This document shows, piece after piece, positions 2,186-63,782 of a stretch of DNA of 64,000 nt. The stretch's first letter is position 1. Every line of letters begins with the position of its first letter. Location of the stretch: positions 16,492,001 through 16,556,000 of the forward strand of contig OX597831.1 in the NCBI GenBank assembly GCA_951406725.2, written 5' to 3'. Under the pieces are notes generated by a model that made no database searches, was not told where the DNA came from, and saw only the letters and a list, made by a program, of their open reading frames with translations. Source of the stretch: Octopus vulgaris. Taxonomy: Eukaryota. Position numbers and translations under genes: made by a program.

Positions 2186-2322
2186 GCAATAGTCTTTCTG
2201 AAATAATAAGGAATGTACAGAACTAGTGTGTAATCAGTAGTATTCGTAAATTTTGGTTTAGTATGAAATGAAAAAAAAACAAAATAAGACCTTAAATGCA
2301 GGTTCGTTGATGTAATCTTTAT

Positions 2323-5300
2323 TTATATATATCTCATTAAGTAACTTGTAACTGCAATAGAGAAGAGAAGCTCCATCATATCCTGTAAAGAAAAAATAAT
2401 TACAGACGTTAATGAAACAAATTTTCATGGTGAAAGTTTTGCTGAAATTACATTAGATAATTTGAAGAGTATGTGTCAAGATTTACCATTCTTGTTACAG
2501 TTATAATTGATTGTGCATTACACTAATCTCGTTATTTATTTTATAAAGATATTATTGTCGGACTAATATCCTCACTCGGTAAAGCCGGACATATTGCTTT
2601 CGGCATTTTGTCTGCAATTACCATTTGAATTCTTATTCCACAGTGGTCGACTTTGTATTCCATCCCACTGGTGTCGATGAAATAAATTCCAATTGATCAC
2701 TGGGGGTCGAGGTAATTCATAAACTTCTCTTGCGAATTGGCCGCCGTGTATCAAAATTTGAACTCAAGATATTTAATGAACTTCTGTATTTAAATTCTGT
2801 TCCAATTATATAATGATATTTTACTGTTACATTAATAACTGTACATTATTTACGTTATTTACAATTGACGGATATTTGTCTTCATCTTCTCTGTTGTTAA
2901 CACAACGTTTCGGCTGATGTACACTCCAGCCTTCTTCAGGTGTCTTGGTTAAATTTTAACACGGGTTCTCATTCCTAAGGTATTTTTCGATGTTATTATT
3001 AACATCTTGTTTCTTAACAACAAACAAGATTACGACGAATATCCGTCGAATTGTAAATAATGTATATACTGTACATAATTCCTCATCTCATTAATATAGA
3101 ACTGAATTATGACTGTGTTGTGTATTACTATATTATAACGTAATTCCTGCACTTGTGCGAAATTAAAAATAATCAGTTGGTAAATAACATTTAGAAAGTG
3201 CTTTACTGTGAATATTCCAATAATATTCCTTCATGCATATTTATTCGTCCCTGAAGATAGCAGCAGCATTCGTGAAGTGGAAATATTGTAAAAGGTAATT
3301 CAAGGTATTACAAACGTTTATAATCTCTCGAATTCTACTTAAATATATTTTTCTCGAATTCTACATAAATATCGCAAAATTTGTTAATGTAGTATTTCGT
3401 TATTCGTAGTGACGATGATTTCCGGTGTTATTGGGTCTTTAATTATTTATAATACAATGTTATTAGGAAGATATTATTCAATGTCGGCGATGTAAGATGA
3501 CATAATGTACAGATTTTACGCACCTTTTTCTGGACAGTTCCAACACCACTATGCTGAAAGCAAATGTTAAAAGTGTAAATTTATACATATGAATATATAT
3601 ATATATATATATACGTGCACATTAGACATAAAAGCATAGCAATCTTTTCTATATGTCTGTAAAAAACTTAAAATATATACTTATTAGGAATGTATACATC
3701 ACTTGACCAATTCTGGAAGAAATGGAAACGTATTTCCAATAACAACTATTTCCAAAATCGATTTGACGAGATACGAACTTAAATTAGGAAATCTCAGACG
3801 TTCCATAAACTTTGTTCCTTCTATTCCTCCCAATGATTACCATAGAAAGAGTTGGGTTTTTTCACAAAAGTTTTCCATTACCGTATCAGATAGAAATAAA
3901 AGTCTACAGTAGTAGCTAATGATAATATAAGTCATCAAAATGAAATGCGGCAAAATACTGAATTACAACTTATTACTTTAGACAACAAAATATAAATAAA
4001 GAATATATCTTACACGACACGCCTTGTGAATGTATTGATCATAAAATTTGGCGCATTCCCGACTTGTTTTATAAAAACACTTAGAATCTTTCCTAAGTAT
4101 GCTGCAAAATAATCATAAATCAGGAATTATATACAAAATTAATCACGTATTGGGTGCATCATAGATATTTCGAAATATCTTTAGAAAAGGCAGTCACAAC
4201 AAACTTAGAATATTTTAATGTTTGTATATAATCTGTTACAATATGATAAGCATATCTCATAAAATATATTATTCCGTATTGAAGATGACGGCTGTAATAA
4301 GATTTTGAACACATTACATGAGTGAACACAGCGTGTCACAGCTGGCAAGTTCACAGAATGCAGTCGGGATCTGGACACAATTTGGAGTGTCACTATAGAA
4401 AAGTGCTGGATTACACTGGGCGAACACGATGTGGAAACATGTTAAAAGCTTCTGTCTTAACGATTATCTGTTTCATTCCTCCACACGATTCGATCTAAAA
4501 CATGTTCACCGAGAACCGCTTGATGAGATATGTTAATCATACCAACGGCATCATCTACAACCACTGGGTTTCATTTGAGGCTGTTGTTCACGAAAGAGTA
4601 ATCTGCACAGGTTTTATGTGTGTTCAGTGTGAGTTCTTCTATGTTAGAGGCCAAAATATTTTCATCAGATTAATCCACCAATCCAGATATTTGAAGTCGT
4701 AACAAACTTCGTATCAGACGTGGGCATGAAAACTGTACGTCGCCCTATTTGAAAATTAGATCCTGCACCCTACGACATTCAGTTTTTCCCAACATTGTGA
4801 ATGAACAAGAGAAGTCGTTTGATGTATTTTAAATTGTAAAGGACACATAAAAAGGATCGTGATCACAGTCAATTTCGAGGGCACCCGTGGATCATTCACG
4901 CAGAGGCTGCAACGCAGAGGTTGGAACGATGCAATTGGTGCAATGATGACTGACGAACCCAATTTGGACGTTATTAAGAAACTTTAGAACTTTATTGAAA
5001 TGAATGCATGTTTTTTCTGCAATAAACCTTGTAAATGATATCTGTGTTTCAATACATTTCAAAGATCTTGGATTAAATATACTTTATTTCAAAATTGCAA
5101 TTGAAAATTTGCTCTATGAAGAGCAAATAAAATGTTTGCTACTATGTCTGTGCAATAAATATCTTTCTTTGGCGAAATTGGAATTAGTTTGGTCGTTTTA
5201 GCATACACACTACACATCGGGATATATATATATATATATAAGGAGAGTTTACGGAAGAAGATGAAAAGAGAGTAGGGGTGAAGAGAAATAGGAGTGCAGA

Positions 5301-5405
5301 GAAGTAGGTGTAGGGGCAAGAGAGGAGAGTTGGGTGGGAGGAAGTAGAAGTGAGAGTGAGGGGTATATATATATATATATATATATATACAGACAAACAC
5401 ATATG

Positions 5406-5437
<32 letters not shown>

Positions 5438-8400
5438 ATGAGAGAGAGATAGGGTTATGAGAGGTAATGGTATCAATTATACTGGAAGGTGTCAGGTAAT
5501 GCTGAGTAAGTGCTATGGATAGACAACAGTTAAGCTCCAGATTCAGTGATTATGGGAAGAAAGAGTACAACGTAGGTCATATATCAGCATGTGCATATTT
5601 TAATGAGATAAAAACCAATGCTGTGAAGATTTTAGAACATTATATTTATTATATCCGTTCATCGGAGACGGTGGTTAAGCAATAGTTAATTTAGATAAGA
5701 TACGAAATAGAGAGTGAATTAGTGGAATTAAGTAGATGTGAGATATGCAGGGATATTGAAATTATAGATCCATTATCTAGGTATGCAATATCCTTACATA
5801 TCTCACATTTATTTTCATTCTTCTATTTCACTCTCTGTTTCGTGTCTTATCTAAAGTAACTAATGCTTAACCATTTTCTCACACCATCACCTATGAAGGG
5901 ATATAATAAATATCCTGGAAACACATAAGTAAGATATATATATATCTGTGTGTGTGTGCATTCTTGTGTGCGTGTGTGTGTTTCTTTATATTTCATAACA
6001 CTTTGCTTAAAATCTTATGTGATGTACATATTTATTCTAGTTATTATATAATTTATACTCAGTTTATTATCATTATTCCGTACATCATAAACGAAACATG
6101 ATCTTAATATTATTAAATTTCAATGTATTTATAAAAATTGCAATGCTATATATTTACAAAGACATTTATTGTAAAAGATGTTTGGCGAAAATGCTATTGG
6201 TTTGTAAAAATTGAAATGCAAATTTATTAAAAAGTAACTTAATGTAATCGGACTTTAGGTCGCAGAACACTCACTAAAGTAGCTCCTAAATATGTATATA
6301 TAAACATACATGTGCACGAAGATATATATATGTGTGTCTGTGTATTTGCTTGAGAGACAGTGACAGAGAGATTCGAGCAGATTCGACAGATATATAATGA
6401 CGGGAGAAAGAGATAGACTTAATTAGCATTAATATTTAGTATTATAAATACATAGCATAATATTAAATGTAGTCGTGCGAATATATCTACCGGCAAAGAT
6501 AACTTTTTTGAGGATACGCTTTGAATGTCCAGTGGGGGTAATTGCATATTTGTTCAAACTGATGAGTGCATGACTCTTTCATCTCCACACCTATTATAAA
6601 AAAACAAAAGAAAAAATATATAATTGAAGCTGTATTTAAAAGCTATGCCAGTAAATATTAGAATACATTCTTAAGTAGAATATTCACCTCATACTCAATT
6701 AAAATAATTGAGATATCTTTGAACTTTGCCTATAAATGTCAACTTTAAATGTGTTTTACTACGACATCTGCAAATGAAGAAACAGTCACTCCCACATTTT
6801 CAAAAATAGATTTGCCTACGCCTGTATATTCTAAATAATTTTGCATGAATATTTTGATACCAAATTTTATGTTGCAAATACTTCACGGACTAAAATGGAA
6901 ATTAATTTATTATCAAACATTGTTGCACCTCAGTAATTAAAATATATTTTATCATAACTTAGAAATTAAAGAGACGTAAAAAAAAGTTTATGATATTGGA
7001 TCAAACTTGATGAATTTATATATAATCATTTCTACTACGGGCACAAGGCCTGAAATTTGCCGGGATGGAAATAGTCGATTATACCGACCCCAGTGGCAGA
7101 ATCGTTAGCGCGCCGGGCGAGATGCTTAGCAGTATTTCGTCTGCCGTTATGTTCTGAGTTCAAATTCCGCCGAGGTCGACTTTGTCTTTCATCCTTTCGG
7201 GGTCGATTAAATAAGTACTTCTTACGCACTCGGGTCGATATAATCGAATTAAACCGTTTGTTTGTCATTGTTTGTCCTCTCTGTATTTAGCCCCATGTGG
7301 GTAGTAAATAAATAGGTATTTAATCTATCACGCCAAAATAATGTAAAGAAAATTCGACCACGGCAGAATTGAACTCAGAAAAAGACCCGGGCTAAAAGCT
7401 GCTACACATGTTGCCCGGCGTGCCTAAGAATCTGTGAGACCGCCGCTTTCATGAAGTTTTAATAATGGTAAATGAATAGTTTGGTGGAACTTTCCCATTC
7501 GATAGGCAAGTTTGAAAAATTCCCGAGCAGCTTCCTTCTTTTCTTTCTTTCTTTTTCTTTAATGAAAACAAATTTCTTTCTCTTTCATCCAATGTTCACA
7601 TACTTCTATTTCCAGGTCCATTACTTCGAATCCCACTGCTTGAAACATTATTTCTCGTTGTAAAATATCGAGAGGCATGCCCCTAAATCTCAACTATTTA
7701 TTTCTAAATCATGTGTTTTATTTTGTAAGAATATATTTTTTAAAAATCAAAAATGAATACACAGAATTGACGGATAGTTATTGTTATTGCTAAGCAGAGT
7801 GAATAATTTTCTAGTTATTGAATCTTTCCCTTCTTTTTCGTAATATTTGTGTCGTATTATAAAGTATATCTATAGCATATAACCACTGATATAAACAGCA
7901 AATGTTAAATTATGCGTTAAATGTGAGAGGTTTTGTACAGAGAACTTAAACATGGTTTGATAAGCGTGTGGAGACGAGGCAATGTTTCGTGTGGCGGGGA
8001 CGTTCGAAAATGCACAGCAACGCCACAGTGCAATCAAGAGCACGTTCGTCACTTTCTTCCTTTATCTGCTCTATTGTGCATCGGGAATACGTCCACCAGA
8101 ACCGAACGATCGATCGAAAGTTCTGCAGCGATATTTTCGAGTGTTTGATGTAGAACATTCGGTGAAAAAGACAGGATCTGTTGTGTCCCAATAATTGGAA
8201 TCCTCACTTTGACAATGCACCCTATAACCGAGCATTCCTTACTAATGCGTTGCCCGCCTAAAACAACATGGCATCGCTTCCACACTCCAATTCTTATCAG
8301 ATTTAACATCTGCGATTTCCATCGCTTCTCAAAGATAAATAAATATAGTTCAATAGATGCCATATTCAGGCCGTTGTCCAGGACGAATCGCATAAAACCG

Positions 8401-11132
8401 TCGACTAGTTTCCGGATAATGACTTCCAGACCGGATCCCAAATGTAGAAGAATCGCTTGGATCGATGTATGATCAAATATATTAACTTCTATTAAAGATA
8501 TCTTGTTCAGGAACATGTTTGTGGATTCAGGGAATTAAATCTCTTTAATTTTATTAAAAATCAAGCAGCAGCAGGGAAGAACGTAACACTGATAAATAAA
8601 GAAATTTAATTATATCAAAGTACACAAAATACACACTCTAAAGGGTGTCAATAGGAAACAAACTGGTAGAGATACGAAAAAACAGAAGTTATAATTTTAA
8701 ACATCTATTCTTTCCAAACAGTATTATAAGTGCGAAAACATCTCAAAATACTAGTGAATGTCAGTCGTCAAAAATGTCTACACAGGACACTGTCATATTT
8801 CTCCTGCATTAGAGTCATAATCAAAGCAGATTGTGCAACCTGATGACGTATCCCTTTGGAGGTTTTCTTCACCATTTTGAAATGTATACTTGAACTGTAC
8901 ACATACACACATATAAAATATATATATACAGGTTAGCATACACATACGCTTCATCAAACTAAAAAATACACAGGTGCATACACACAGGGATCTTCAGTTA
9001 TGTCTTCTAATACTCAAACAGATCAAACGGAAACGAAATATGGAGAATTAAATGAAATATATGGATAACGTACGCACTCACAGTGATACACATACATTCT
9101 AATCTATTCATACATACATACGTATATACACCCCTACACACACACACAAATTTGGTTGAAATATATAGAAACACAGAAGAAGAAGACAGGTGTGTGAACA
9201 GCAAGTATTAGCTTGACTCTCGAAAACAAAGTCAGAAAGTCTTTTACATTTCGAACCTACGCTCTTCAACAGAAAGGAATAAAAGGCAATAAACAGAGTA
9301 AGGGGAAAAGGGAAAAAAAACAAATCATATAGATTCATCAGTCCAACTTGGCGAATCATTCGCCATGCCGGACTAATGAACACTACAAGTTTTGTTTCAC
9401 TTTCTCTCTGATTATTTTCTCATATTGTTTCGTGTTGAAAAGATTAATCTCGAAAGGTACAATATTTTTGATTTCTTTCCTCAAATTAATATACTTGCTT
9501 GTTGTTCGTACATCTGTCTCTGTATTTCGTCTTTCTATAAATTTCAACTATATAACATACGCTCACTTAGTTACGCCAGTTTGATCCTGACTGAATAAAC
9601 TACGTATTGGAAGGGTTTATGTTAAACCCTTCGCGAACCTTCAGCACCTGTTCCCATCTTCATACCAGCACTCCGCCTCGATTACCATTGTATCTACTGC
9701 ATCTACCTTCAAGGATTTTACTGGAGGTTTCAATGATCTTAAATGGCATTTTTATTAATAGAAGAATGTTTGAATGTCGTACGATGCATTATCTATGAAT
9801 AAGATGAAACAAAATATGATTAAAGGTTTAGGGAATTATTAAAAAATACGGATATGGTAATAGAATGACTTGATATAGTCTGATACATTATCTGTTACCG
9901 ATGTAAATCTTTTTTAATGTTACCCAGATTAGGGAATAGGCTAAATACACGAGCGAATGGTATTAAGACACTGACATAAATGGTATAAATTTATAAATAG
10001 AAAAATCACTGAATATTGTCTAATATGCAATCTGTTACGGAATTGGATGAAAATATATCAAAACCAGTTAGTTCATTATTCAGTTGCTTTGATCTACTTA
10101 ATAAAGTGTCTTATTGTAAATATAATGATTAAGTATCTTTTCAATTCGAATATGCATAGAGTAACATTAGAATATAGGAATGCATCCTGTTTAAGAAGTT
10201 GGCAGCATGCAATCGATTCATGAGACTGATTAATAATATTCGAATTCCTATTATTAATATGGAACGCCATACAAATAGGGAACCAAAGCCAACTCCCGCA
10301 TCTCCCATCATATAGCAGCGCATAACTTATAATAAACAACACAATTTTAAATTCAATACAATTTTTCGGTGAGTGAAAATAAAAGTTTAGCGAGAACGCT
10401 ATAATTATTGGAATGAGGTGCGTTGATAGGTCGATGGTTTGTAGTATAGATAGCGCAATGCGTTTACTTAGAACTTAGAAAATTAAATGAACCAGTATTA
10501 GATGCATCATACGTTGCTGGAGTATACTAATGTGTATGTCCGTGCGTGTGCATGTTTGCGTGCGTGTTTATATAGGCAGACTTGTTCAGACAACCTCTTG
10601 ATGTTTAGAGTCGTTAAAATGTTGCAAGTACTTAATTCTTTTTCACAACGTGGCACTCATTTGATGGATTTACTGGGCCACGTTTAGCCGGAACGCTAAT
10701 TTATGCGGACATAAAACAAGCTAAGCTCTTCAAGCGGCTGCGGATGATATACATAGGAACAGATTCTTCCATACTATCGTGCGCACACACACATTTACAC
10801 ACATATCCATGTATATACTTACACATATATATATAAATATATATATATATTCTTATAAAAAAAAATATATATCCATATATGATACGTATATATAAATATA
10901 TATATATATACATACATATACATAATTGATGTATTAATACACACTTACATGTACATATGTAAATATATTTCAATAAATGTTTGTGTGAGCGTGTTTGTAT
11001 GAGGACAATGTTGGAAAGGATACAGAGAAGGGGGAATGTGAAACGATGTTAGATGTTTGATTTCTTGTGAAAGACATTGTAATTCATATTCTTACCACAA
11101 ATAAGAAACGCCAGGAAGATGTAGATTTTCAT
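2323..11132 (-). CDS. Paralog A: small secreted or GPI-anchored six-cysteine protein, ~106 aa, family unknown (multi-exon)
   Basis: Manual spliced model: exons 11132-11096 (37 nt, donor GTAAGA), 6590-6491 (100 nt, TTTTTATAATAG/GTAGAT), 4101-4014 (88 nt, TTTTGCAG/GTAAGA), 2522-2487 (36 nt, weak acceptor GATTAG, donor GTAAAT), 2382-2323 (TTTCTTTACAG, stop TAA overlapping AATAAA). Translation [106 protein letters not shown]. The first three exons are well supported by four paralogs; the last two are less certain. Confidence 0.85.
2570..2765 (-). mobile_element. Degenerate tRNA-derived SINE fragment (also ~23160-23355, ~38340-38530)
   Basis: Contains GGTCGACTTTG..TTCCATCC and AAATTTGAACTC pieces matching the SINE at 7095. 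Confidence 0.5.
2899..2944 (-). ncRNA. Minimal type I hammerhead ribozyme motif in a Penelope-type LTR-like repeat (~2840-3110); degenerate copies 23488-23533, 38664-38709
   Basis: Minus strand GACAC-CUGAAGA-A-GGCUG(loop)CAGCC-GAAACGUU-GUGUU: conserved core, stem II, palindromic AACGUU in place of stem III, stem I. Confidence 0.65.
5642..5913. mobile_element. MITE-like foldback in intron 2 (also 45337-45608; partial ~25925-26118)
   Basis: ATATTTATTATATCC...GGATATAATAAATAT ends, with internal arms GGTTAAGCA/TGCTTAACC, TTTAGATAAGA/TCTTATCTAAA and ATGTGAGATATG/CATATCTCACAT. Confidence 0.7.
7030..7447. mobile_element. Cluster of tRNA-derived octopus-type SINEs in both orientations (also ~27270-27690, ~46780-47200)
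   Basis: GGCAGAATCGTTAGC (A-box-like)...GAGTTCAAATTCC (B-box)...GGTCGACTTTG..CATCCTTTCGGGGTCGAT on + (7095-7318), flanked by minus-strand halves. Confidence 0.8.
8040..8360 (+). mobile_element. Mariner transposase relic (also ~28300-28425 truncated, ~47810-48125)
   Basis: Conceptual translation [56 protein letters not shown]...LPHS matches the mariner catalytic region (GIVH..FV..G.TV, WILHHDNAP.H, LPHPPYSPDL). Confidence 0.8.
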
Positions 11133-12113: not shown

Positions 12114-12351
12114 TTCTTTGCGTCCTTTCAAATACAAAAATCGGATCACTGCTCGACACTCAACAGGCTCCATTTCATACTTGACTCAGCTCAAACACAT
12201 GTAAATCAGGAACCGCAATTAGTCCAGAGCTGTAATTTTCCACGTAATCGATAGAGGTATGCATAATTGCACATCCAAAATTTCAGCTAGATCAAATAAA
12301 TGCAAGTGGGTCAGGAGCATTATTTATTGAACGTCCCTCGTATCAAAATCC

Positions 12352-12490
12352 TCTTTATAGTCTATCCAGGCTATTGATAAGTTTTTTTCTCGTTTGTGAC
12401 AATCTTCTAATATCATCTTATTGATGAGTAGCTGATCTTTACAACCATAGGATCCACGTTTACATACTTTCTGTTCACTATTCTATTATT
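12352..12490 (-). mobile_element. Inverted short piece of the family 1 Dong/R4 LINE (its 5'-truncation junction)
   Basis: Reverse complement of 20600-20735 and ~35272-35380, including the (AAT)n-AGAATAGTGAACAGAAAG junction. Confidence 0.8.
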
Positions 12491-12596
12491 ATTGTTATTA
12501 TTATTATTATAAATATGATTTTTATTATTATTATTATTATTATTATTAATAATATTATTATTATTATTATGATTATTAATATTATTATTATTATTA

Positions 12597-12689
<93 letters not shown>

Positions 12690-12691
<2 letters not shown>

Positions 12692-20390: not shown

Positions 20391-20491
20391 GAGGGTTTTT
20401 CCTGTCTATGTTTACTTGTTGTATTCCGATGTTATGACGTTTTCTGTTCTAACAGTCTAATCTGTCTAATGTATATGAAAAAAAAATAATA

Positions 20492-20568
<77 letters not shown>

Positions 20569-20599
20569 CATAATAATAATAATTATAATATTAATAATA

Positions 20600-22427: not shown

Positions 22428-22639
22428 AAATAATAATAATGAGTAGAAGGAGAAGAAGAAGAAGAAGAGGAAAAAGAAGGAGAAGAAGATGAAGAAGAAG
22501 AAGAAGAAGAAGAAGAAGAAGAAGAAGAAGAAAAAATGAAGAAGAAGAAAAAGAAGAAGAAGAAGAAGAAGAAGATGAAAAAGAAAAAGAAGAATGAGAA
22601 AAAGAAGGCGAAGAAGAAGAAGAAGAAGAAGGAGAAAAA

Positions 22640-22911: not shown

Positions 22912-30649
<7,738 letters not shown>

Positions 30650-35128: not shown

Positions 35129-35244
<116 letters not shown>

Positions 35245-35271
35245 TATAATAATAATTATAATATTAATAAT

Positions 35272-38090: not shown

Positions 38091-39404
38091 TTATATATAT
38101 CTCATTAAGTAACTTGTAACTGCAATAGAGAAGAGAAGCTCCATCATATCCTGTAAAGAAAAAATAATTACAGACGTTAATGAAACAAATTCTTCGGTGA
38201 AAGTTTTGCTGAAATTACATTAGATAATTTGAAGAGTATGTGTCAAGATTTACCATTCTTGTTACAGTTATAATTGATTGTGCATTACACTAATCTCGTT
38301 ATTTATTTTATAAAGATATTATTGTCGGACTAACATCCTCACTCGGTAAAGGCGGACATATTGCTTTCGGCATTTTGTCTGCAATTACCATTTGAATTCT
38401 AATTCCACAGTGGTCGTCTTTGTATTCCATCCCACTGGTGTCGATGAAATAAATTCCAATTGATCACTGGGGGCCGAGGTAATCCATATACTTCTCTTGC
38501 GAATTTGCCCGTGTATCAAAATTTGAACTCAAGTAATTTAATGAACTTCCGTATTTAAATGCTGTCACAATTATATAATGATATTTTACTATTACAATAA
38601 TAACTGTACATTATTTACGTTATTTATAATTGACGGATATTTGTCTTCATCTTCTCTGTTGTTAACACAACGTTTCGGGTGATGTACCCTCCAGCCTTCT
38701 TCAGGTGTCTTGGGTACATTTTAAACCCCGTGTTCTCATTCCTAAGGTATTTTTCGATGTTATTATTAACATCTTGTTTGTGAACAAAAAACAAGATGAC
38801 GACGAATATCCGTCGAATTGTAAATAATGTATATACTGTACATAATTCCTCATCTCATTAATATAGAACTGAATTATGACTGTGTTGTGTATTACTATAT
38901 TATAACGTAATTCCTGCACTTGTGCGAAATTGAAAATAATCAGTTGGTACATAACATTTAGAAAGTGCTTTACTGTGTATATTCCAATAATAATTATTCA
39001 TTCATATTTATTTGTCCCTGAAGATAGCTGTAGTATTCGTTAAGTGGATATATTGTAAAAGGTACTTCACGGTATTACAAACGTCTATAGTTACTCGAAT
39101 TCTACTTAAATATATTTTTCTCGAATTCTACATAAATATCGCAAAACTTGTTAATGTAGTATTTCGTTATTCGTAGTGACGATGATTTCCGGTGTTATTG
39201 GGTATTTAATTATTTATAATACAATGTTATTAGGAAGATATTATTCAATGTCGGCGATGTAAGATGATATAATGTACAGATTCTACGCACCTTTTTCTGG
39301 ACAGTTCCAACACCACCATGCTGAAAGCAAGTGATGTAAGTGTAAATATATACATATGAATATAAATATATATTATATATATGTGTATGTATAGATATAA
39401 ATAA

Positions 39405-39468
<64 letters not shown>

Positions 39469-39478
39469 ATATAAATAA

Positions 39479-39547
<69 letters not shown>

Positions 39548-41538
39548 ATTGATATATATATACGTGCACATTAGACATAAAAGCATGACAATCTTTTCTA
39601 TATCTCTGTAAAAAACTTAAAATATATTCTTATTATGGCCAATTCTGGTAGAAAAAGCGACCATGCTTTTCATACATAAGACAAACCCGGTAATTTAAGA
39701 AAAGTGGAACTCCTTCTTCACATTTTATGTGTATTTTACTCTTTGTTTAATATTGTTGATTTTGCTAAGTCTTCAGATAAAATAACTATTTTCATCAAAT
39801 GTTATTATATATCCGCACATATATTTCTACATAGAATTATCTGTATAAAAAACGTCTACTGGTCCTCTGTCCATGAATTAGACTCAAAGTGACCGAATGC
39901 AAGTATTCGAAGAACAGTGAAAAATGCAGCTACATTAAAGGCCGTAGTACATAAAACTTTTATTTATTATAAGTTTCTTTCCCAACGGAGGATGCTTTAG
40001 AACCAAAAATAGTATTTATTATTAAATGTTATATGCGAATTACTTAAAATTATATCAAAAATAATACTCGAATTTGGACATGCCCTTAAAAGAAAGGGCC
40101 GGCGTAGGATCTTGAATTACGTCGACAGACTTGTGGACGTATTTCTGTTTCAACAGCCATCGCAAAAATCAAGTAATACGCTGCCGGTGCATAGATATCT
40201 CTTAAGTCGCATCATTCGCTGGATTGCATCATGTAATAAGAATCGTATTTCAAGTGACAAGCATTATAAACCAATTCCAAAGTCGACTTGACGAGATACG
40301 AAATTAAATTAGGAAATCTCAGACGTTCCATAAATATCGTTCCTTCTGTTCCTCCCTATGTTTACCATAGAAAGAGTTGGGTTTTATACAATAATTTAGG
40401 CATAAGTTTTCTATTACAGTATCAGATACAAATAAAAGTCTGCACGAGTAGCAAACGATAAAATGTGTCATCAAAATGAAATAGGACAAAATACTGAATT
40501 ACAAAATATTACTTTATACATCAAATTATAATGAATGAATGTAGCTTACATGACACGCTTTGCGAATGTATTCATCATAAAATTTGGCACAATCGTGACT
40601 TGTGTTATAAAAACACTTTGAATCATTCTTAAGTATGCTGCAAAATAATCAGAAATCAGGAATTATATCAGGAATTGAAGATGACGGCTGTAATAAGATT
40701 TTGAACACATTACATGAGTGAACACTGCGTGTCACAGCTGGCAAGTTCACAGAATGCATTCGGGATCTGAACACAATTTGGAGGGTCACTAAAGAAAAGT
40801 GCTGGATTACACTGGGCGAAAACGATGCAGAAACATGTTAAAAGATTCTGTCTTAACGATTATCTGTTTCATTCTTTCACACGATTCGATATAAAACAAT
40901 TTCACCGAGAACCGCTTGATGAGATATGTTAATCATACCAACGGCATCATCTACAACCACTGGGTTTCATTTGGGGCTGATGTTCACGAAAGAGTAATCT
41001 GCACAGGTTTTATGTGTGTTCAGTGTGAGTCTTCTATGTTAGAGGCCAAAATATTTTCATCAGATTAATCCACCAATCCAGATATTTGAAGTCGTAACAA
41101 ACTTCGTATCAGACGTGGGCATGAAAACTGTACGTCGCCCTATTTGCAAATTAGATCCTGCACCCTATGACATTCAGTTTTTCCCAACATTGTGAATGAA
41201 CAAGAGAAGTCGTTTGATGTATTTTAAATTGTAAAGGACACATAAAAAGGATCGTGATCACAGTCAATTTCGAGGGCACCCGTGGTTCATTCACGCAGAG
41301 GCTGGAACGCAGAGGTTGGAACGATGCAATTGGTGCAATGATGACTGACGAACCCAATTTGGACGTTATTAAGAAACTTTAGAACTTCATTGAAATGAAT
41401 GCATGTTTTTTCTGCAATAAACCTTGTAAATGATATCTGTGTTTCAATACATTTCAAAGATCTTGGATTAAATATACTTTATTTCAAAATGGCGAAATTA
41501 GAATTAGTTTGGTCGTTTTAGCATACACACTACACATC

Positions 41539-41576
<38 letters not shown>

Positions 41577-42438
41577 TATATATATATATATATATATATT
41601 TATTATATAGAAGGAGCTTCTACAGGACTAGAACTGTTTCATTCAAAAGAAATCATCAGGAAGCTAGTAGAGAAGAGTTGTTTTGGCATTTATATATTTA
41701 GGCAGGTTTAAATGGGTGGTGATGGGGGACTTTTTGGGGGGTAGGCATGGCGCAAAACTGTCATTATTAGGGGAGTGGTCAAAGGAATCGGTGGTAAAGT
41801 AGATAACAGAATAAATAAAAGAATAAAAAGAAAAATAGAGTTTTAGGTAAGTAAGGAGACTCTCAATTGTACATCTACATATATATATATATACATATAT
41901 ATACACCCACATATTCACATATATCTATACATATACATACATACCCACATATACATACATATATATATACATACATACACATACATATACATATATATAT
42001 ACATATATATACATATATATACATATACCCATGTACGTACACACAAATACACATATACATACATATATATACATATATGTATACACACTCGCACATATAT
42101 ATATACATACACACATATATACACATGCATATACATGCACACACATACTCATATGCAGACGCGCGCGTTATATTCATACACGCATACATCTACATACATT
42201 CACGTATATTCACATACGTACACGTACCTACTGATTCATATCTACACGCATACACATACATACCTCAATACACCCACAGAAGACTAATCCATACATATAC
42301 ACTAATTAATATATATACACATATACATATACACATACATACACATACATACATATGTATACACATATACATATATATATATACATATATATACATATAC
42401 ATATACATACACATATACATTCATACATATATACACAT

Positions 42439-42487
<49 letters not shown>

Positions 42488-42659
42488 TACACATACACAC
42501 ACACACACGCATCTATATATACACATAAGTACATACATGCATAAATGTATACATATGTCGATACATATGCATACACATCCACACACACACGCACCTCCTT
42601 ATGTTCATAAATACATACATGCATACAGGCATATACATATATACATAAATGCATACTCA

Positions 42660-42691
<32 letters not shown>

Positions 42692-44862
42692 TTGGGTTGT
42701 TAGGTTTTTGTGGGTGGGGTGTCGTCAATCTGGTTGCCGGGTGGGTCTATAGTTCTTGTAGTTTGCATAAATTTTATGCATGCAATTTGGGGAGTGTTCT
42801 GAGATCTTGATGAGGAGATGGCCTTTGGCGAACAAGATCTCTAGGCTCTCGGAAATGCAAAGGTCACAGCAGGTATGGCCTCCTGTGTACGAACGCGCCT
42901 TCTGTAGTAGTCTCCACTTGGTCTTGAAGGGGATGGAGTTCCTTTTAAGGTACCAGATGTGGGCGGCGAGGGTAGTTTGGTTGGATTTATCATGTCGCCG
43001 GAACGATTGTGTGTGGGCGTACCAGCGGGTCTTAAAGCTGCTTTACGTCATTCCGATGTACGAATTTCTTTTATCATCGGGGCCTGATCGTAACTCGCAT
43101 GTATAGACGAGGTCCCTCTGTAGGCAGTTGTTGTTGAGGGGGCAGGTGGTTTTATCAGGGCAGTTACAATTGCTATCGGATGTTGGATGGGCCTCGGAAA
43201 GAGTAGATATATTAAGTTTTTTCACGTTGTTGTTGGCTAGGTTCCTGGCTAGATTGGGCGTGGTAGAGTAGGAGAGTCTAATGGTGTTCTTATTTAGGAT
43301 AGTATAGTACTTATGTTGGGTGGGGAAGTGTTTCTGTAGGAGAGTGAAGAAGATTTTAGCTACAGGTGTAGCGACCTCACGGTTGAAGGGGGGGTTGTAC
43401 CAGCTAATGTGTCTTCGCCTATTTTTCCTGGGTTGGCGTGGGGCTATACTAGTATAGGTGATCTTATTTTTAAAGCCTCTGCGGGCCAGGGACTCGTTGT
43501 AATAGGGGGCTGCGGCAGTAAAGATATGTTCAGTAGAGGACAGGCTAGATATTCTAATTGAGACACTTTTTACTAGGTTGTCTAATATATTTTTGGGGTG
43601 GTTGGAATTAATGTCTATATATCTAAGGGATTCATTTGGTTTGTGGTACCGGTAATAAAGTGAGGTTTTTAAGTCGAGGGTAACGTCTAGGAAGTTAGCT
43701 TTGGTTAAGTTGGATTAAGAAGGAGGCGCGTGTGTGTGTGGATGTGTATGCATATGTATAGACATATGTATACATTTATGCATGTATGTACTTATGTGTA
43801 TATATAGATGCGTGTGTGTGTGTGTATGTGTACGCATATATATATATATATATATATGTATGTGTATATATGTATGAATGTATATGTGTATGTATATATA
43901 TGTATATATATATGTATATGTGTATGTATATGTATGTATGTGTATGTATGTGTATATGTATATGTGTATATATATTAATTAGTGTATATGTATGGACTAG
44001 TCTTCTGTGGGTGTATTGAGGTATGTATGTGTATGCGTGTAGATATGAATCAGTAGGTACGTGTACGTATGTGAATATACGTGAATGTATGTAGATGTAT
44101 GCGTGTATGAATATAACACGTGCGTCTGCGTATGAGTATGTGTGTACGTGTGAATGTGTGGGCGTGAGTGAGTGCTTGCGTTCGTATCAGTGAGTAGATA
44201 GATAAACGGAATCTTTAGATCATTCCTTGAGACCGGCTGACCGCGGTCAAGATAAAAATAAAGATATAAACAAAAGTAGTTATAATAAAATTAAAATAAG
44301 AGAATAAAAATGCGTGTGTATGTGTGTGCATGTATATGCATGTGTATATATGTGTGTATGTATATATATATGTGCGAGTGTGTATACATATATGTATATA
44401 TATGTATATGTATGTGTATGTATGTATATATATATATGTATGTATATGTGGGTATGTATGTATATGTATAGATATATGTGAATATGTGGGTGTATATATA
44501 TGTATATATATATATGTAGATGTACAAGTGATAGTCTCCTTACTTACCTAAAACTCTATTTTCCTTTTTATTCTTTTATTTATTCTTTTATCTACTTTAC
44601 CACCGATTCCTTTGACCACTCCCCTAATAATGACAGTGTTGCGCCATGCCTACCCGCAAAAATGTCCCCCATCACCAGCCATTTAAACCTGCCTAAATGT
44701 ATAAACGCCAAAACAACTCTTGTCTACTAGCTTCCTGATGATTTCTTTTGAATGAAACAGTTCTAGTCCTGTAGAAACTCCTTCTATATAATAAATTAAT
44801 TTACTCTGCTATGTATTGAGTACCTTATTTACTGTGGTTAACCCCGACTCAACCCGGGACCT

Positions 44863-44940
<78 letters not shown>

Positions 44941-45626
44941 AGAGTTTACGAGAGATGATGAAAAGAGAGTAGGGGTGAAGAGAAATAGAAGTGCAGAGAA
45001 GTAGGAGTAGAGGCAAGAGAGGAGAGTTGGGTGGGAGGAAGTAGAAGGGAGGGGGGAGGAGTATATATATATATACATACAGACACACAAACTCACACAC
45101 ACACATATATATATATAATGAGAGAGAGAGATAGGGTTATGAGAGGTAATGTATCAATTATACTGGAAGGTGTCAGGTAATGCTGAGTAAGTGCTATGGA
45201 TAGACAACAGTTAAGCTCCAGATTCGGTGATTATGGGAAGAAAGAGTACAACGTAGGTCATATATCAGCATGTGTATATTTTAATAGTTTTTTCAGAATG
45301 AGATAAAAACCAATGCTGTGAAGATTTTAGAACATTATATTTATTATATCCGTTCATCGGAGACGGTGGTTAAGCAATAGTTAATTTAGATAAGATACGA
45401 AATAGAGAGTGAAATAGTGGAATGAAGTAGATGTGAGATATGCAGGGATATTGAAATTATAGATCCATTATCTAGGTATGCAATATCCTTACGTATCTCA
45501 CATCTATTTTCATTCCTCTATTTCACTCTCTGTTTCGTGTCTTATCTAAAGTAACTAATGCTTAACCATTTTCTCACACCGTCTCCTATGAAGGGATATA
45601 ATAAATATCCTGAAAACAGATATGTA

Positions 45627-45696
<70 letters not shown>

Positions 45697-48600
45697 GTGT
45701 GTGTGTGAATTTTTGTATGTGTGTGTGTGTTTCTTTACGAACACACACGCACACGTTGCTACGTAATTTTTCTCGTTATTATATAACTTATACTTAGTTT
45801 ATTATCATTATTCCATACGTCAGAACTGAAACATGATCTTATTATTGTTAAAATTCAATGTATTTTTAAAAATTGCAATGCTATATATGTACAAAGACAT
45901 TTAACGTAAAGATGTTTGGCGAAAATGCTATGGGTTTGTAAAAATTGAAATGCAAATTTATTAAAAAGTAACTTAATGTAATCGGACTTTAGGTCGCAGA
46001 ACACTCACTAAAGTAGCACCTAAATATGTATATATAAGCATACATGTGCACGAAGATATATATGTCTTTGTGTTTGTGTGTGTGTGTCTGTGTATTTGCT
46101 TGTGAGACAGTGACAGAGAGATTCGAGCAGATTCGACAGATACATAATGACAGGAGAAAGAGATAGACTTAATTAGCATTAATATTTAGTATTATAAATA
46201 CTTAGCATAATATTAAATGTAGTCGTGCGAATATATCTACCGGCAAAGAAAATTTTTTTGAGGATACGCATTGAATGTCCAGTGGGGGTAATTGCATGCT
46301 TTTTCAAACTGTTGAGGGCATGACTCTTTCGTCTCCACACCTAATTTAAAAAGACAAAAGAAAAAAAATATACTTAAAGCAGTATTTAAAAATTATGCCA
46401 GTAAATATTAGAATACGTTCTTAAGTAGAATATTCACGTCATGCTCAATTAAAATAATTGAAATATCTTTGACTTTTGCCTATAAATGTCAACTTTAAAT
46501 GTGTTTTACTACGATATCTGCAAATGAAGAAACAGTCACTCGCATAATTTCAATTATAGATTTGCCTACGCCTTTATATTCTAAATGCTTTTGCATGAAT
46601 ATTTTGATACCGAATTTTATGTTGCAAATACTTCACGGACTAAAATGGAAATTAATTTATTATCAAACATTGTTGCACCTCAGTAATTAAAATATATTTT
46701 ATCATAACTTAAAAATTAAAGAGACGTGAAACAATTAGTTTCTGACATTGGATCAGAGTTGATGAATTTATAAATAATCCTTTCTTCTACAGCCAAAAAG
46801 CCTGAAATTTGCCATGATGGAAATAGTCGATTATACCGACCCCAGTGGCAGAATCGTTAGCACGACGGGCGAAATGCTTAGCAGTATTTCGTCTGTCGCT
46901 ATGTTCTGAGTTCAAATTCCGCGGAGGTCGACTTTGTCTTTCATCCTTTCGGGGTCGATTAAATAAGTACTTGTTACGCACTCGGGTCGATATAATCGAA
47001 TTAATCCGTTTGTTTGTCATTGTTTGTCCTCTCTGTATTTAGCCCCATGTGGGTAGAAAAGAAATAGGTATTTAATATATCATGCCAAACGAATGAAAAG
47101 AATTTTCGACCGCGGCAGAATTTGAACTCAGAAAAAGACCCGGGCTAAAAGTTGCTGCACATGTTGCCCGGCGTGCTTACGATACTGTGAGCACGCCGCC
47201 TTCATGCAGCTATAAATAATGGCAAAGGAATTGTTTGGTGGAACTTTCCCATTCGATAGACAAGTTTGAAAGATTCCCGAGCAGCTTCCTTGTTTTCCTT
47301 CTTTCTTTTTCTTTAATGCAATCAAATTTCTTTTTCTTTCATCCAATGTTCACATCCCTCTATTTACAGGTCCATTACATTAAGTCCCGCTGCGTGAAAC
47401 ATTTTTTTCTCAAAGTAAAATATCGTGATGCATGCCCCTAACTCTCACTTATTTCTTTGTAAATCATGATGGAAGTTGTGTTTTATTTTGTAAGGCTATA
47501 TTTTTTAGAAATCAGAAATGAAAACACAGAATTGACGGATAGTTATTGTTATTGCTAAGCAGAGTGAATAATTTTCTATTGTTTTCGTAATATTTGTGTC
47601 GTATTATACAGTATATCTATAGCATATAACCACTGATATAAACAGCAAACGGTAAATTCTGCGTTAAATGTGAGAGGTTTTGTACAGAGAACTTAAACAT
47701 GGTTTGATAAGCGTGTGGAGACGAGGCAATGGGTCGTATGCAATGTTTCGTGTTGCGGGGACGTTCGAAAATGCATAGCAACGCCACAGTGAAATCAAGA
47801 GCATGTTCCTCACTTTTTCCCTTTAACTGCTCTATTGTGCAACGGGAATACGTCCACCAGAACCGAACCATCGATCGAGAGTTCTGCAGCGATGTTTTCG
47901 GGTGTTTGATGTAGAACATTCGGTGAAAAAGACAGGATCTGTTGTGTCCCAATAATTGGAATCCTCACTGTGACAATGCACCCTATAACTGAGCATTCCT
48001 TACTAATGCGTTGCCCGCCTAAAACAACGTGGCATCGCTTCCACACTCCAATTCTTATCAGATTTAACATCTGCGATTTCCATCGCTTCTCAAAGATAAA
48101 AAATTGTAGTTCAATAGATGTCATATTCAGGCCGTTGTCCAGGACGAATCGGATAAGACCGTCGACTAGTTTCCGGATAACGACTTCCAGATATGATTCC
48201 AAATGTAGAAGAAACGCTTGGATCGATGTATGATCAAAAGTATTAACTTCTATTAAAGATATCTTGTTCAGGAACTGTTTGTGGATTCAGGGAATTGAAT
48301 CACATTAATTTTATTAAAAATCAAAGAGCAGCAGGGAAGTACGTAACACTGATAAATAAAGAAATTTAATTATATCAAAGTACACAAAATACAAACTCTA
48401 AAGGGTGTCAATAGGAAACAAACAGGTAGAGATACAAAAAAAAAACAGAAGCTATAATTTTAAAAATCTGTTCTTTCCAAACAGTATTATAAGTGCGAAA
48501 ACATCTCAAAATACTAGTGAATGTCAGTCGTCAAAAATGTCTACACAGGACACTGTCATATCCGTCCTGCATTAGAGTCATTATCAAAGCAGATCGTGCA

Positions 48601-48702
48601 ACCTGATGACGTATCGCTTTGGAGGTTTTTAGCACCATTTTTAAATATCTACTTGAACTGTACACACACACACATATATAATATATATATATATATATAT
48701 GT

Positions 48703-48739
<37 letters not shown>

Positions 48740-50675
48740 TGTGTGTGTGTATATATACAGGATGGCATACACATACGCTTCATAATACTAAAATATTCAC
48801 AGGTGCATACACACAGGGATCTTCGGTAATGTCTTCTAATACTCAAACAGATCAAACGGAAACGAAATATGGAGAATTAAATGAAATATATGGATAATGT
48901 ACTCACTCACAGTGATACACATACATTCTCATCTATTCATACATACATACGTATATACACCTCCTACTCACACATACACACACAAATTTGGTTGAAACAC
49001 AGAAGAAGAAGACAGGTGTGTGAACAGCAAGTATTAGCTTGACTCTCGAAAAAAAAGTCAGAAAGTCTTTTACATTTCGACCCTACGCTCTTCAACAGAA
49101 AGGAATAAAAGGCAATAAACAGTGTAAGGGGGAAAAGGAAAAAAACAAATCATATAGATTCATCAGTCCAACTTGGCGAATCATTCGCCATGCCGGACTA
49201 ATGAACACTACAAGTTTTGTTTCACTTTCTCTCTGATTATTTTCTCATATTTCTTCGTGTTGAAAAGATTAATCTCGAAAGGTACAATATTTTGATTTCT
49301 TTCCTCAAACTAATTCACTTGCTCGTTGTTCGTACATCTGTCTCTGTATTTCGTCTTTCTATAAATTCCAACTTTATAACATACGCTCACTTGGTTACGC
49401 CAGTTTGATCCTGACTGAATAAACTACTTATTGGAAGGGTTTATGTTAAACCCTTCCCGAACCTTCAGCACCTGTCCTCATCCTCATACCAGCATTCCGC
49501 CTCGATTACCATTTTATCTACTGCATCTACCTTCAAGGATATTACTGGAGGTTTCAATGATCTTAAATAGCATTTTTATAAATAGACGAAAGTTTGAATG
49601 TCGTACAATGCATTATCTAAGAATAAGATGAAACAAAATATGATTAAAGGTTTAGGCAATTATTAAAAGATACGTATTTGGTAATAGAATGACTTGATAT
49701 AGTCTAATACATTATCTGTTACTGAGGCAACTCTTTTTTAATGTTACCCAGATTAGGGAATTAGCTAAAATGCACGAGCGAATGGTATTAAAGCACTGAA
49801 ATTAATGGTATAATAATAGGTTTATAAATAGAAAAATCACTGAATATTGTGTAAAATGATATCTGTTACGGAGTTGGGCAAAAATATTTCAAACCCAGTA
49901 AGTTCATTATTCAGTTGCTTTGAGCTACTTAATAAAGTGACTTATTGTAAATATAATGATTAAGTATATTTTCAATACGAATATACATAGAGTAACATTA
50001 GAATATAGGAATGCATCCTGTTTAAGAAGTTGGCAGCATGCAATCGATTCATGAGGCTGATTAATAATATTCGAATTCCCATTATTAATATGGAACACCA
50101 TACAAATAGGGAACCAAAGCCAACTCCCGCATCTCCCATCATATAGCAGCGCATAACTTATAATAAACAACACAATTTTAAATTCAATACAATTTTTCAG
50201 TGAGTGAAAATAAAAGTTTAGCGAGAACGCTATAATTATTGGAATGAGGTGCGTTGATAGGTCGATGGTTTGTAGTATAGATAGCGCAATGCGTTTACTT
50301 AGAACTTAGAAAACTAAATGAACCAGTATTAGATGCATCATCTGTTGCTGGAGTTTACTAATGTGTATGTCCGTGCGTGTGCATGTTTGCGTGCGTGCTT
50401 ATATAGGCAGACTTGTTCAGACTACCTCATGATGTTTAGAGTCGTTAAAATGTTGCAAGTACTTAATTCTTTTTCACAACGTGGCACTCATTTAATGGAT
50501 TTACTGGGCCACGTTTCGCCGGAACGCTAATTTATGCGGACATAAAACAAGCTAAGCTCTTCAAGCGGCTGCGGATGATATACATAGGAACAGATTCTTC
50601 CATACTATCGTGCGCACACACACATTTACACACATATCCATATATACTTACACATATATATATTTATATATGTAT

Positions 50676-50761
<86 letters not shown>

Positions 50762-50762
50762 T

Positions 50763-50803
<41 letters not shown>

Positions 50804-50804
50804 A

Positions 50805-50835
<31 letters not shown>

Positions 50836-50889
50836 CCTAAAAATATGTATATATATATATAAATATATATATATATAAGTTATTCTAAG

Positions 50890-50936
<47 letters not shown>

Positions 50937-51149
50937 CATAATTGATGTATGATTACACTCTTTAAAATACATATGTATATATATTTCAATAAATGTTTGT
51001 TTGAGCGTGTTTATATGAGGACAATGTTAGGAAGGATAGAGAGAAGGGGATAAAGAGAAACGTTGTTAGATGTTTGATTTCTTGTGAAAGACATTGTAAT
51101 TCATATTCTTACCACAAATGAGAAACGCAATGAAGATGTAGAGTTTCAT
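38091..51149 (-). CDS. Paralog C of the six-cysteine small protein (multi-exon)
   Basis: Exons 51149-51113, 46340-46241, 40637-40550, 38289-38254, 38150-38091; open frame: [106 protein letters not shown]. Intron 2 carries a Penelope-like insertion. Confidence 0.85.
41615..41665 (-). ncRNA. Type I hammerhead ribozyme motif in the Penelope pseudo-LTR
   Basis: AGCUUC-CUGAUGA-UUUC(UUUU)GAAU-GAAA-CAG(UUCUAGUC)CUG-UA-GAAGCU: 6-bp stem I, core, stem II with a U-U closing mismatch, stem III, GUA cleavage triplet. Confidence 0.75.
44729..44779 (+). ncRNA. Second copy of the hammerhead motif in the inverted pseudo-LTR
   Basis: Same motif on +, with one stem I mismatch (GAAACT). Confidence 0.65.
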
Positions 51150-61384: not shown

Positions 61385-63128
61385 ATGAAAATATTTATAA
61401 TAAATGCGTTTCTCATTTCAGGTAAGTATACAAATATCCTGAAACTTTTTTGACACACATTTAAACCTACCTCGTAAACTCCTCTCCTCTTGAAATCTCT
61501 CTCTAACTCTTGCAATCGCTTTCATGCTATATATGTAGGCATGAAATTTAGAAGAATTCAAAATTAGAAGTAAAACAATTTCTTTGTTGCTTAATTTGAT
61601 AACTCAATATGTTGGCACAAATTCATTAACAACTCATGTTTGACATTTTTTTGAAACACTAAGAATCGAATGATTTCCCTTCAGTGATCATCATTCTTCT
61701 GCTTGTCTGGAATCGTAAGCAATTCATATATTGGCAGTTACATCGATATAAAATATACACATGTATATTTGAAGGAATTCATACCCGTAATATATATTGT
61801 GTTCAAAAGTGTCCAGAGCATAAATGTACATTTTACCAAGGGATGTACATGAAAATTATAACTCATTATTATAAATGTATGTTAAAGAATTAAAAATATT
61901 CATTTTAACTATTGTAGGTGTTATGATGGAGGAAAGTTGTGGTAAACTAGCAGAGAAGACATGCGAGTACCCAGCGCGGATGTTCAATAACATTAACTAT
62001 GAACAAAACTTTTGCAGGTACATTGTCATAAATAGTCAAACTGATATTCGGAATACTGCATCGCATGCTTCAACCTTCCCATATTGGTTACTGAATGTCT
62101 CTCTGCCTCTACTATTATCGCTTTCTTTTTCTTACATTCCTTTTCTTCCTTCTTTCTCCCTCACTCCCATCTCTCTGCATGTGTAAGTGCGTATCTGTGT
62201 ATTTGTTGGCGGGCTGATTGCACACGGTCGCCATAGGGATTAGGTCACATTTGATTCGCCTGCGCTGTCATCCCACCTCAGAGAATATATTATACGAAAC
62301 ATTATTTGTAAGAAATCCTCTCATAACAAAGAAACAAAAACCACCCATTTTTGAATGAGTTAAAAATCGAAATCTATATTTTGTCAATTCAAACATTTCA
62401 GAACGTTTGAGCCTATGCCACATAAGGAAAAATATAAACCCATTGTGATACTCTCCTTATGAATAGCTAAAGAATCACGATTCCATCAGCGACGAAGGAA
62501 AAAGAACAAAACCAAATAATAATCTTTTCTACTCTAGGCACAAGGCGCAAATAATTGGGGGACGGGGCCAGTCGATTAGATAGACCCAAATACGTAACAC
62601 CTACTTAATTTACCGGACCCCGAAAGGATGAAAGGCAGAGTTGACCCGGCAGAATTTGAACTCAGACCGTAAAGAAAGACGAAATTCCTATATCTTTACT
62701 ACCCACAAGGAGCTAAATGCAAAGAGCCCAAACAAGGACAGACAAAAGGAATAAGTCGATTACATCGACCCCAGTGCGTAACTGGTACTCAATTTACCGA
62801 CCCCGAAAGGATCAAAGGCAAAGTCGACATCGGTGGAATTTGAACTCAGAACATGACAGCAGTCGAAATACGGCTACGCATTTCGCCCGGCGTGATAACG
62901 TTTCTGCCAGCTCACCGTCTTAAGACTAATTAATAACGGACCAGTGCAGTTAGAAAGAACACAAATAACATCTCTGGATCTTTCCTTTCCCTATGTTACT
63001 GACGAAGAGCTCCGCTCGAAACGTTAAACCCTCCTTCTTCCCTTCCTTCCTGAGCGTCCAATAATACTTTATTTGTTCCACGTCCTTGCGTTGTTGTTTT
63101 TTCTCTTTGTGTTTTCATGTTTGGATTA

Positions 63129-63173
<45 letters not shown>

Positions 63174-63782
63174 ATGAATGTGTGTAGTCACACACGACGG
63201 TCTTCTTTCAGCTTTCACCTAACAAGTTCATGCACAATTCTTTACTAGACGTGGGACTCTAATAAAGATACTTGTCCAGTGTGACACGCAGGGATATTCT
63301 ATCTGGAACCATGTGGTTGGAAAGTAATCTTCGGAGCACACATCCACATGTATAATATACATACATTACTTCCGTGCATATGTTAAACTTTTCCACTCTT
63401 ACGACGTAGTAAATTCCAGTGTCATCTTATTGTATAAATATGATTGCAAGTAGTGCAATACCTGTACGCTCTCGCGTTATGTTTGTCGCGTATCTACAGT
63501 ATTGCGAAGGAAATGAGTTGATCACACATCTCGTTATTTCTCAAATTTTGCTGTGATCACGCTTGCCCAACTGCGTATAGGTGTGTCGTTGTAAACTGAA
63601 CTTGATCACAGAACATTGTAAATTTTCAAAATCTACAAAACTTTTATATTTAGTTTTTTTAATCTAATATATTGATTTTTATTTTGTCTCGCAGTACTTT
63701 CCTTGATTTTTCTCCATGTCTCATGGGTATATCTATAATTTGTGATGAATTCTACAAGTCATTCTTTTACGAAAAATGCCTG
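61385..63782 (+). CDS. Paralog D (divergent, 3'-incomplete) of the six-cysteine small protein
   Basis: Exons 61385-61421 (37 nt, CAG|GTAAGT), 61918-62017 (100 nt, TTGTAG/GTACAT), 63695-63782 (88 nt, TTTTGTCTCGCAG/GTAAGA): MKIFIINAFLISGVMMEESCGKLAEKTCEYPARMFNNINYEQNFCSTFLDFSPCLMGISIICDEFYKSFFYEKCL... Exon sizes, phases and Cys spacing are identical to A-C. Exon 2 is visible in ORF 61875..62186. Terminal exons not identified and probably lie beyond the window. Confidence 0.85.
61685..61714 (+). CDS. Candidate 30-nt in-frame cassette exon of paralog D (VIIILLLVWN)
   Basis: TTTCCCTTCAG acceptor, GTAAGC donor, phase 1-1, no stop, hydrophobic; no counterpart found in A-C. Confidence 0.45.
62523..62920 (-). 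mobile_element. Two tandem or nested tRNA-derived SINEs in paralog D intron 2
   Basis: Reverse complement of the SINE at 7095 (CCCCGAAAGGAT.AAAGGCA.AGT.GAC...GAATTTGAACTCAG) twice; 5' end GCCAGCTCACCG. Confidence 0.8.
62995..63029 (+). ncRNA. Minimal hammerhead-like motif in a Penelope-type LTR repeat
   Basis: GUUA-CUGACGA-A-GAGC(UCC)GCUC-GAAACGUU-AAAC; same architecture as the 2899 motif, with a weak stem I. Confidence 0.5.

Follow-up and report, generated by a model that had tools for sequence, protein, structure and literature searches.

The 64,000 nucleotides of Octopus vulgaris DNA analysed here (the window) lie within an array that is apparently an undescribed octopus gene family of more than 30 small cysteine-rich genes, and on balance we lean towards exon 2 of these genes encoding the variable half-domain of a predicted GPI-anchored protein for recognition or binding, with exposed residues that would be diversifying as its partners change. 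The excess of exon over intron divergence in these genes is of an already known kind and is smaller than had been claimed, and the sequences suggest, but do not prove, positive selection on exon 2.

The gene is carried on the minus strand in five coding exons of 37, 100, 88, 30 and 60 nt (Table 1), whose ends are all AG/GT, and each of the four young copies, A, B, C and D, has an intact frame of 104 residues. The cysteines are found at residues 20, 28, 45, 54, 62 and 74 behind a hydrophobic N-terminus, and the protein ends in a polar spacer followed by a 15-residue hydrophobic run without a cytoplasmic tail. A TATA-like motif at 11192-11186 accompanies exon 1 of copy A, 12 of the 13 residues of this exon are the same as in XP_052830366.1, the frame of exon 4 was set by a gapless match to protein P0008, and in exon 5 an AATAAA overlaps the stop codon.

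Table 1. Positions of the genes, exons and tracts discussed in the text, numbered within the window unless a contig is given.
Feature	Position	Strand	Description
Copy A exon 1	11096..11132	-	start codon and signal peptide, 12 codons + 1 nt
Copy A exon 2	6491..6590	-	first half of six-Cys domain, C-x7-C-x16-C
Copy A exon 3	4014..4101	-	second half of domain, C-x7-C-x11-C
Copy A exon 4	3524..3553	-	polar spacer containing small residues; GPI attachment predicted here
Copy A exon 5	2318..2382	-	hydrophobic tail; stop 2325-2323; AATAAA 2323-2318
Copy B	22912..30649	-	exons 30613-30649, 26732-26831, 25073-25160, 23868-23897, 22912-22971; intact 104-aa frame
Copy C	38091..51149	-	exons 51113-51149, 46241-46340, 40550-40637, 39291-39320, 38091-38150; intact 104-aa frame
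Copy D	just left of window, G000:C18 16.476-16.486 Mb		intact 104-aa frame
Gene E	61385..63782	+	exons 61385-61421, 61918-62017, 63695-63782; candidate last exons right of window
Array	window -371 kb to +452 kb (G000:C18 about 16.12-16.94 Mb)	both	about 35 gene-like units; ends not reached
Intron-1 comparator of the original prediction	6641-6900		locally low divergence (A-B 7/260), unrepresentative
Divergence island	3554..6590	-	exon 2, intron 2, exon 3, intron 3; A/C type vs B/D type
D-A tract	11208-9671	-	10/748 differences; putative conversion; p=0.001
D-B tract	6595-5478		18/728 differences, includes exon 2; p=0.001
A-C tract	5727-4436		3/239 differences; p=0.001

Six proteins matched a HMMER profile built from exons 2 and 3, and two of these matches are genuine. 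One is P0002 (CAI9735836.1), a chimeric gene model labelled Octopus vulgaris that fuses exon 3 of copy B, an open reading frame at window 17704-18168 and part of exon 2 of copy A; the other is an Octopus bimaculoides protein whose cluster includes RefSeq XP_052830366.1, of 104 residues. The remaining four (P0004-P0007) proved to be repeat proteins without relation to the family and were set aside, and word-indexed protein searches returned P0002 or P0003 as their sole matches. Because the O. bimaculoides protein aligns gaplessly with the spliced model, the reading frames are fixed independently. A candidate model in which exon 4 was joined straight to exon 2, giving 57 residues and an odd number of cysteines, was refuted by the 88-nt exon 3 and by the P0008 match. 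In the small contig set X4, the kind of which is unrecorded, mean depths imply approximately 84, 30 and 10+80 covered bases at exon 5 plus UTR, exon 4 and exon 3, respectively, if one contig of depth 3.09 is assumed, and this is a weak hint only of a spliced transcript; the reads listed at the locus, which are swamped by repeats, included no splice joint. Approximately 37 nt across the exon-2 donor (6460-6496 in copy A, and the equivalents in B, C and D) are identical in all copies, where the donor is the non-consensus GTAGAT; most paralogs have GTATAT or GTACAT. Read-through past this donor reaches an in-frame stop in all of A-D. Exon 2 can also be aligned with exon 3 (C-x7-C, Y, A, C), although the phases differ, and this likeness suggests an internal duplication.

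A GPI-anchored protein typically has a signal peptide, a small-residue site approximately 25 residues from its end, a polar spacer and a terminal hydrophobic run without a cytoplasmic tail. This shape is seen in A-D and in P0008, with hydropathy of 1.7-2.1 and similar last exons in the paralogs, and GPI anchoring at the cell surface is predicted for these proteins from their sequences. Conservation of the hydrophobic C-terminal tail makes a free toxin, which had been one of the readings put forward, less likely. The last exon of copy D (L013) encodes an extra cysteine at residue 99, within the hydrophobic tail. In the accessible supplementary files of the octopus skin-mucus and salivary-gland proteomes (PMC10138644, PMC7693380) the UniProt identifier of the ortholog and three short motifs do not occur, which does not show that the protein is absent from these secretions.

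The exon-2-like segments of the array number at least 32 (31 from one scan and one from another) over at least 820 kb of the 864 kb scanned. Scores above 25 bits were obtained for 27 of them, on a measure that is partly circular, against a maximum of 22 in a reversed-peptide null. Exon-3-like segments number 28 in the same 864 kb, and signal exons about 30; 19 of the 20 exon pairs tested have AG/GT ends and join in frame. The array repeatedly shows signal exons, domain exons of 100 and 88 nt with matching phases, and hydrophobic last exons, and similar last exons follow about half of the 25 exon-3 segments that were examined for them. The median domain identity over the exon pairs and the ortholog is 23%, with the six cysteines as the sole invariant columns, and the proposal of a gene family built on a cysteine scaffold is borne out. 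Gene E, exposed by a genome search with the ortholog, is an old paralog with approximately 30% domain identity, whereas A-D and the O. bimaculoides protein form one branch with support of 100/100; A-D are inverted relative to their neighbors in the array. The array has been missed or garbled by current annotation, the chimera being the sole model labelled O. vulgaris that was found. Among the papers listed by literature searches there was none on this octopus family, and none under the LOC identifier or joining neuritin with octopus; the supplements of the 2015 octopus genome or the table of unnamed arrays in PMC9068888 may list the cluster. At +264 to +452 kb there is a second young sub-array (L085, L088, L094, L110, L113) with five similar copies of exon 2, four of them with near-identical signal exons and none with a recognized exon 3. 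An 8-kb duplication (+137.5-145.6 and +155.7-163.8 kb, L022-L024) has 98% identity and an identical exon 3, and is either a very recent copy or an assembly artefact.

The Pfam profile RGM_N (PF06535) matches the family at 14.4-15.5 bits (E 0.02-0.05), below its cut-off of 24.2 bits, and the family profile in turn scores the RGM-N of the genome itself at 15.7 bits, which was reached by none of 1000 full shuffles and by 6 of 1000 shuffles with the cysteines fixed. The six-Cys domain has the C-x8-C-x7-C core expected of an RGM-N/neuritin-like fold. The auto-cleaved C-terminal domain of RGM is absent, as the 104-residue protein stops 30 residues past the sixth cysteine, and the true RGM of the genome, with RGM_N over the cut-off, is elsewhere (L115, G000:C2:46683999-46684205). 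No match to NRN1 (PF15056) was obtained at E<=10 for P0008 or P0003, nor in a genome search. Given the weak RGM_N score, the true RGM elsewhere and the lack of an NRN1 match, the protein is neither an RGM nor a neuritin, and the family is probably a distant stand-alone relative of the RGM-N/neuritin domain. Its nearest Atlas entries are unnamed mollusc clusters (0.94 and 0.92), and the nearest named one is neuritin (0.83), which is a lead only. Single exons matched no Pfam family and no Atlas entry, no similarity to Pfam toxin families was found, and sequence searches of the PDB returned nothing significant. Both AlphaFold models, for which the alignments stacking exon 2 on exon 3 (A5, A9) were left out, are all-helical with low confidence (pLDDT 53 and 58); fold searches with them gave best Z scores of 5.2 and 4.7 and no Foldseek match at E<=0.001, and since the models are of low confidence these searches say nothing on the fold.

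Neuritin (CPG15) shares with the octopus proteins a small signal, a cysteine domain and, by prediction in the octopus, a GPI-type tail, and its cysteine pattern is comparable; the neuritin matches are chordate, however, and the octopus domain is shorter, massively duplicated and fast-changing. Neuritin is described as a GPI-anchored neural protein (PMC6502786). The likeness to RGM-N consists of the six-Cys domain, its core and the weak profile match, and RGMs are GPI-anchored (PMC10084454), whereas the octopus family lacks the RGM C-terminal domain and forms a large, highly divergent array. The review PMC10084454 states that RGM domains have not been reported in other families.

The original prediction held that exon 2 was approximately ten times more divergent than the adjacent intron. 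Its counts were all recovered: 25 of 100 nucleotides differ between A and B, exactly as reported, 15 of the 32 codons being changed in amino acid and five in silent positions only; A and C differ at nine nucleotides and eight residues with no silent change; and A and B differ at 7 of 260 positions in the intron stretch. The ratio itself did not survive, as it depends on an unusually similar piece of intron, among the lowest 4% or so of windows. In an alignment of the four copies (D, A, B, C) from which gaps and simple repeats had been removed, A and B differ at 569 of 5748 non-coding columns (9.9%), only 3.8% of 260-column windows have seven or fewer A-B differences, and the stretch is low in all six pairs of copies (7-18/260). 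For A and B, exon 2 is 2.5x as divergent as all non-coding DNA (binomial p=1e-5) and 1.8x as divergent as intron 2 (113/798; Fisher p=0.008). Both are fair comparisons; intron 2 has a history in common with exon 2, and its A-B divergence is 14% against the non-coding average of 9.9%. Since almost no 100-column non-coding window reaches 25 differences (0.2% do, and none exceeds 26), the A-B excess is real, at about twofold. The faster change of exon 2 does not extend to A and C, whose exon 2 (9%) is not above the non-coding background (6.9%, p=0.43), and between D and B exon 2 differs less than the background (1/100 against 7.6%, p=0.007). All seven residues between Cys 20 and Cys 28 differ between A and B, and 7 of the 15 amino-acid changes in exon 2 alter charge.

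The four copies are mosaics. Informative sites are clustered by grouping, with 175 adjacent concordant pairs against 111 expected among 229 sites (p=1e-4), and D and B are grouped against A and C at 19 of 19 informative sites in exon 2, 71 of 73 in intron 2 and 4 of 5 in exon 3, whereas the start of intron 1 groups D with A. Between the two types introns 2 and 3 diverge by 12.6-14.5%, against 5.6-8.9% in the remaining non-coding DNA; copies of one type show no comparable rise (6.2 and 7.7% against 8.0 and 6.7% elsewhere). The tract p-values in Table 1 come from a permutation scan made per pair and are uncorrected. Gene conversion, as had been suggested, is thus supported by the site clustering and the tracts, but the accompanying idea that introns were generally homogenised while the exon was spared is not: the intron-1 stretch falls outside the top three A-B tracts at either penalty, intron 2 is above average between A and B, and exon 2 and intron 2 were apparently copied together as a cassette between D and B. 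The tail exons are identical at 27-28 of 29 residues within the genome and at 17-18 of 29 to O. bimaculoides, while exon 2 of copy A matches O. bimaculoides at 25 of 33 residues and copy B at only 18 of 33. Together with the intron divergences, these identities indicate an island of divergence over the domain cassette, introns included, with flanks that are more homogenised. The A-D clade has support of 93/96, and an alternative tree has p-AU 0.36, which bears on whether the B/D exon 2 split off before or after O. bimaculoides.

Codons alone do not give the dN/dS above 1 that had been anticipated. Pairwise, A-B exon 2 has pN 0.25, pS 0.31 and omega 0.76, the raised pS being drawn from approximately 18 silent sites, and the nine A-C replacements without a silent change give Fisher p=0.14. 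Site models were fitted with our own implementation to codons 14-75 on the tree ((D,B),(A,C)); the four sequences are few, related and recombining, and tests of this kind are inflated by recombination. They gave an M0 omega of 1.02, p=0.14 for both M1a/M2a and M7/M8, and p=0.047 for M8a/M8 with half of the sites at 2.4. Measured against the intron, amino-acid change in exon 2 is elevated as proposed, the replacement rate being 2.06x that of intron 2 (p=0.002). A two-class model in which half of the exon-2 codons are invariant and half change at 3.6x the intron rate has p=2e-5 with the silent rate set to that of the intron and p=0.033 with it left to vary. When exon 2 is taken by itself, a model that raises silent and replacement rates equally does no worse (p=0.65).

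This last result, an overall omega of about 1, the unremarkable A-C exon 2 and an intron 2 that is itself deeper than the other introns would all be expected if there were no positive selection, the domain being weakly constrained save for its cysteines and core aromatics and the excess reflecting an older genealogy kept by patchy conversion. We regard this as fairly unlikely: exon 2 exceeds intron 2 by 1.8-2x though about half of its codons are invariant, the A-C replacements exceed the intron-2 rate (pN, p=0.04), the free-silent two-class test favors a fast class, and all four frames are intact. Fast recent amino-acid turnover is commoner in conflict genes than in wiring genes. This turnover of the copies, the missing NRN1 match and an Atlas score that is a lead only make it unlikely that the array is a neuritin-like neural or sensory surface code, diversified for cell-type labelling with young copies neofunctionalising, even though neuritin is the nearest named Atlas family and both GPI-anchored and neural (PMC6502786), and coleoid genomes have tandem arrays tied to brain development (PMC9068888).

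With a secreted venom or defensive peptide family, such as the snake PLA2 genes, the octopus genes would share a short signal and cysteine scaffold, a tandem array and exon divergence in excess of intron divergence (PMC7285919), and the in-frame stop just past the exon-2 donor could give a short secreted form if the intron were retained. The hydrophobic C-terminal exon, however, is conserved in A-D, O. bimaculoides and many paralogs and is in frame in all four copies, and with no Pfam toxin family resembling the protein we give this reading little credence. It is very improbable that the assembly has misled us, either by placing two haplotypes, D-A and B-C, in tandem or by collapsing the similar intron. 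The cassette of D does resemble that of B, and A that of C, and the D-A and B-C spacers are homologous at 83-99%, but the structure of the flanks argues against a false duplication of haplotypes, as the 3' flank of B follows A and C in carrying a retroelement, and not D, and the 5' flank of A matches C for just approximately 1 kb. In addition, non-coding DNA diverges by 7-10% between copies, which also have private insertions; seven differences remain in the 260-nt stretch; and several distinct contigs cover exon 3 in three independent runs.

In the reading that we favor, that of a surface protein with a diversifying half-domain, conversion and unequal crossing-over after duplication would homogenise the promoter, the signal and tail exons and parts of intron 1, and exchange between the A/C and B/D types would be selected against across exons 2 and 3, leaving an older island with 13-14% non-coding divergence. 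Inside the island about half of the codons would have changed 2.4-3.6x faster than neutral. The product may be a disulfide-stapled helical scaffold, a distant relative of RGM-N/neuritin in which the frame is fixed and one face varies. It would act at an interface of conflict, be it with microbes, with parasites or with gametes, and not as a free venom peptide. More tentatively, and with real doubt, the octopus may possess a hitherto unrecognised near-megabase repertoire of at least 35 GPI-anchored proteins of RGM-N/neuritin fold that serve as a surface recognition code, whether immune, gamete or neural, still diversifying by cassette exchange and positive selection; if this is true, the RGM-N domain would be known from a stand-alone family as well. 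Should the proteins be surface-anchored and tissue-specific, they would be candidates for a repertoire of recognition molecules in cephalopod immunity, fertilisation or neural identity. How new specificities arise by conversion and selection could be tested in a tractable way on the four young copies.

Known systems share parts of this pattern. In snake PLA2 venom genes the mature-domain exons are reported to diverge more than the introns and the signal exon, with KA close to KS (PMC7285919); the excess in the mature domain is alike, whereas the octopus protein has a predicted membrane anchor and part of its excess is an older cassette genealogy common to intron 2. In Plasmodium DBLMSP and DBLMSP2, two deep domain lineages are described as spread between tandem paralogs by non-allelic conversion (PMC10919680), as the two diverged domain types would be here, although there is no homology and the octopus pattern comes from four copies in one genome. 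Clade-specific tandem arrays of cephalopods, including reflectins, suckerins, histidine-rich beak proteins and unnamed squid arrays (PMC9068888), are similarly lineage-restricted clusters of small proteins but belong to another sequence class, and the octopus family is not named in the accessible text of that study.

The copies also carry later insertions. A and C have a common 820-bp insertion (4278-5098 and 40674-41493, 97% identity), and an insertion in intron 2 of C (41598-44796) is flanked by inverted repeats of approximately 480 bp with 91% identity. Decayed copies of a non-LTR retroelement, which we take to be Dong/R4-like, are found at 1-1760, 20479-22430, 35152-37380 and 12341-15000, beside (TAA)n/(TTC)n repeats, and are located downstream of A, B and C and not of D.
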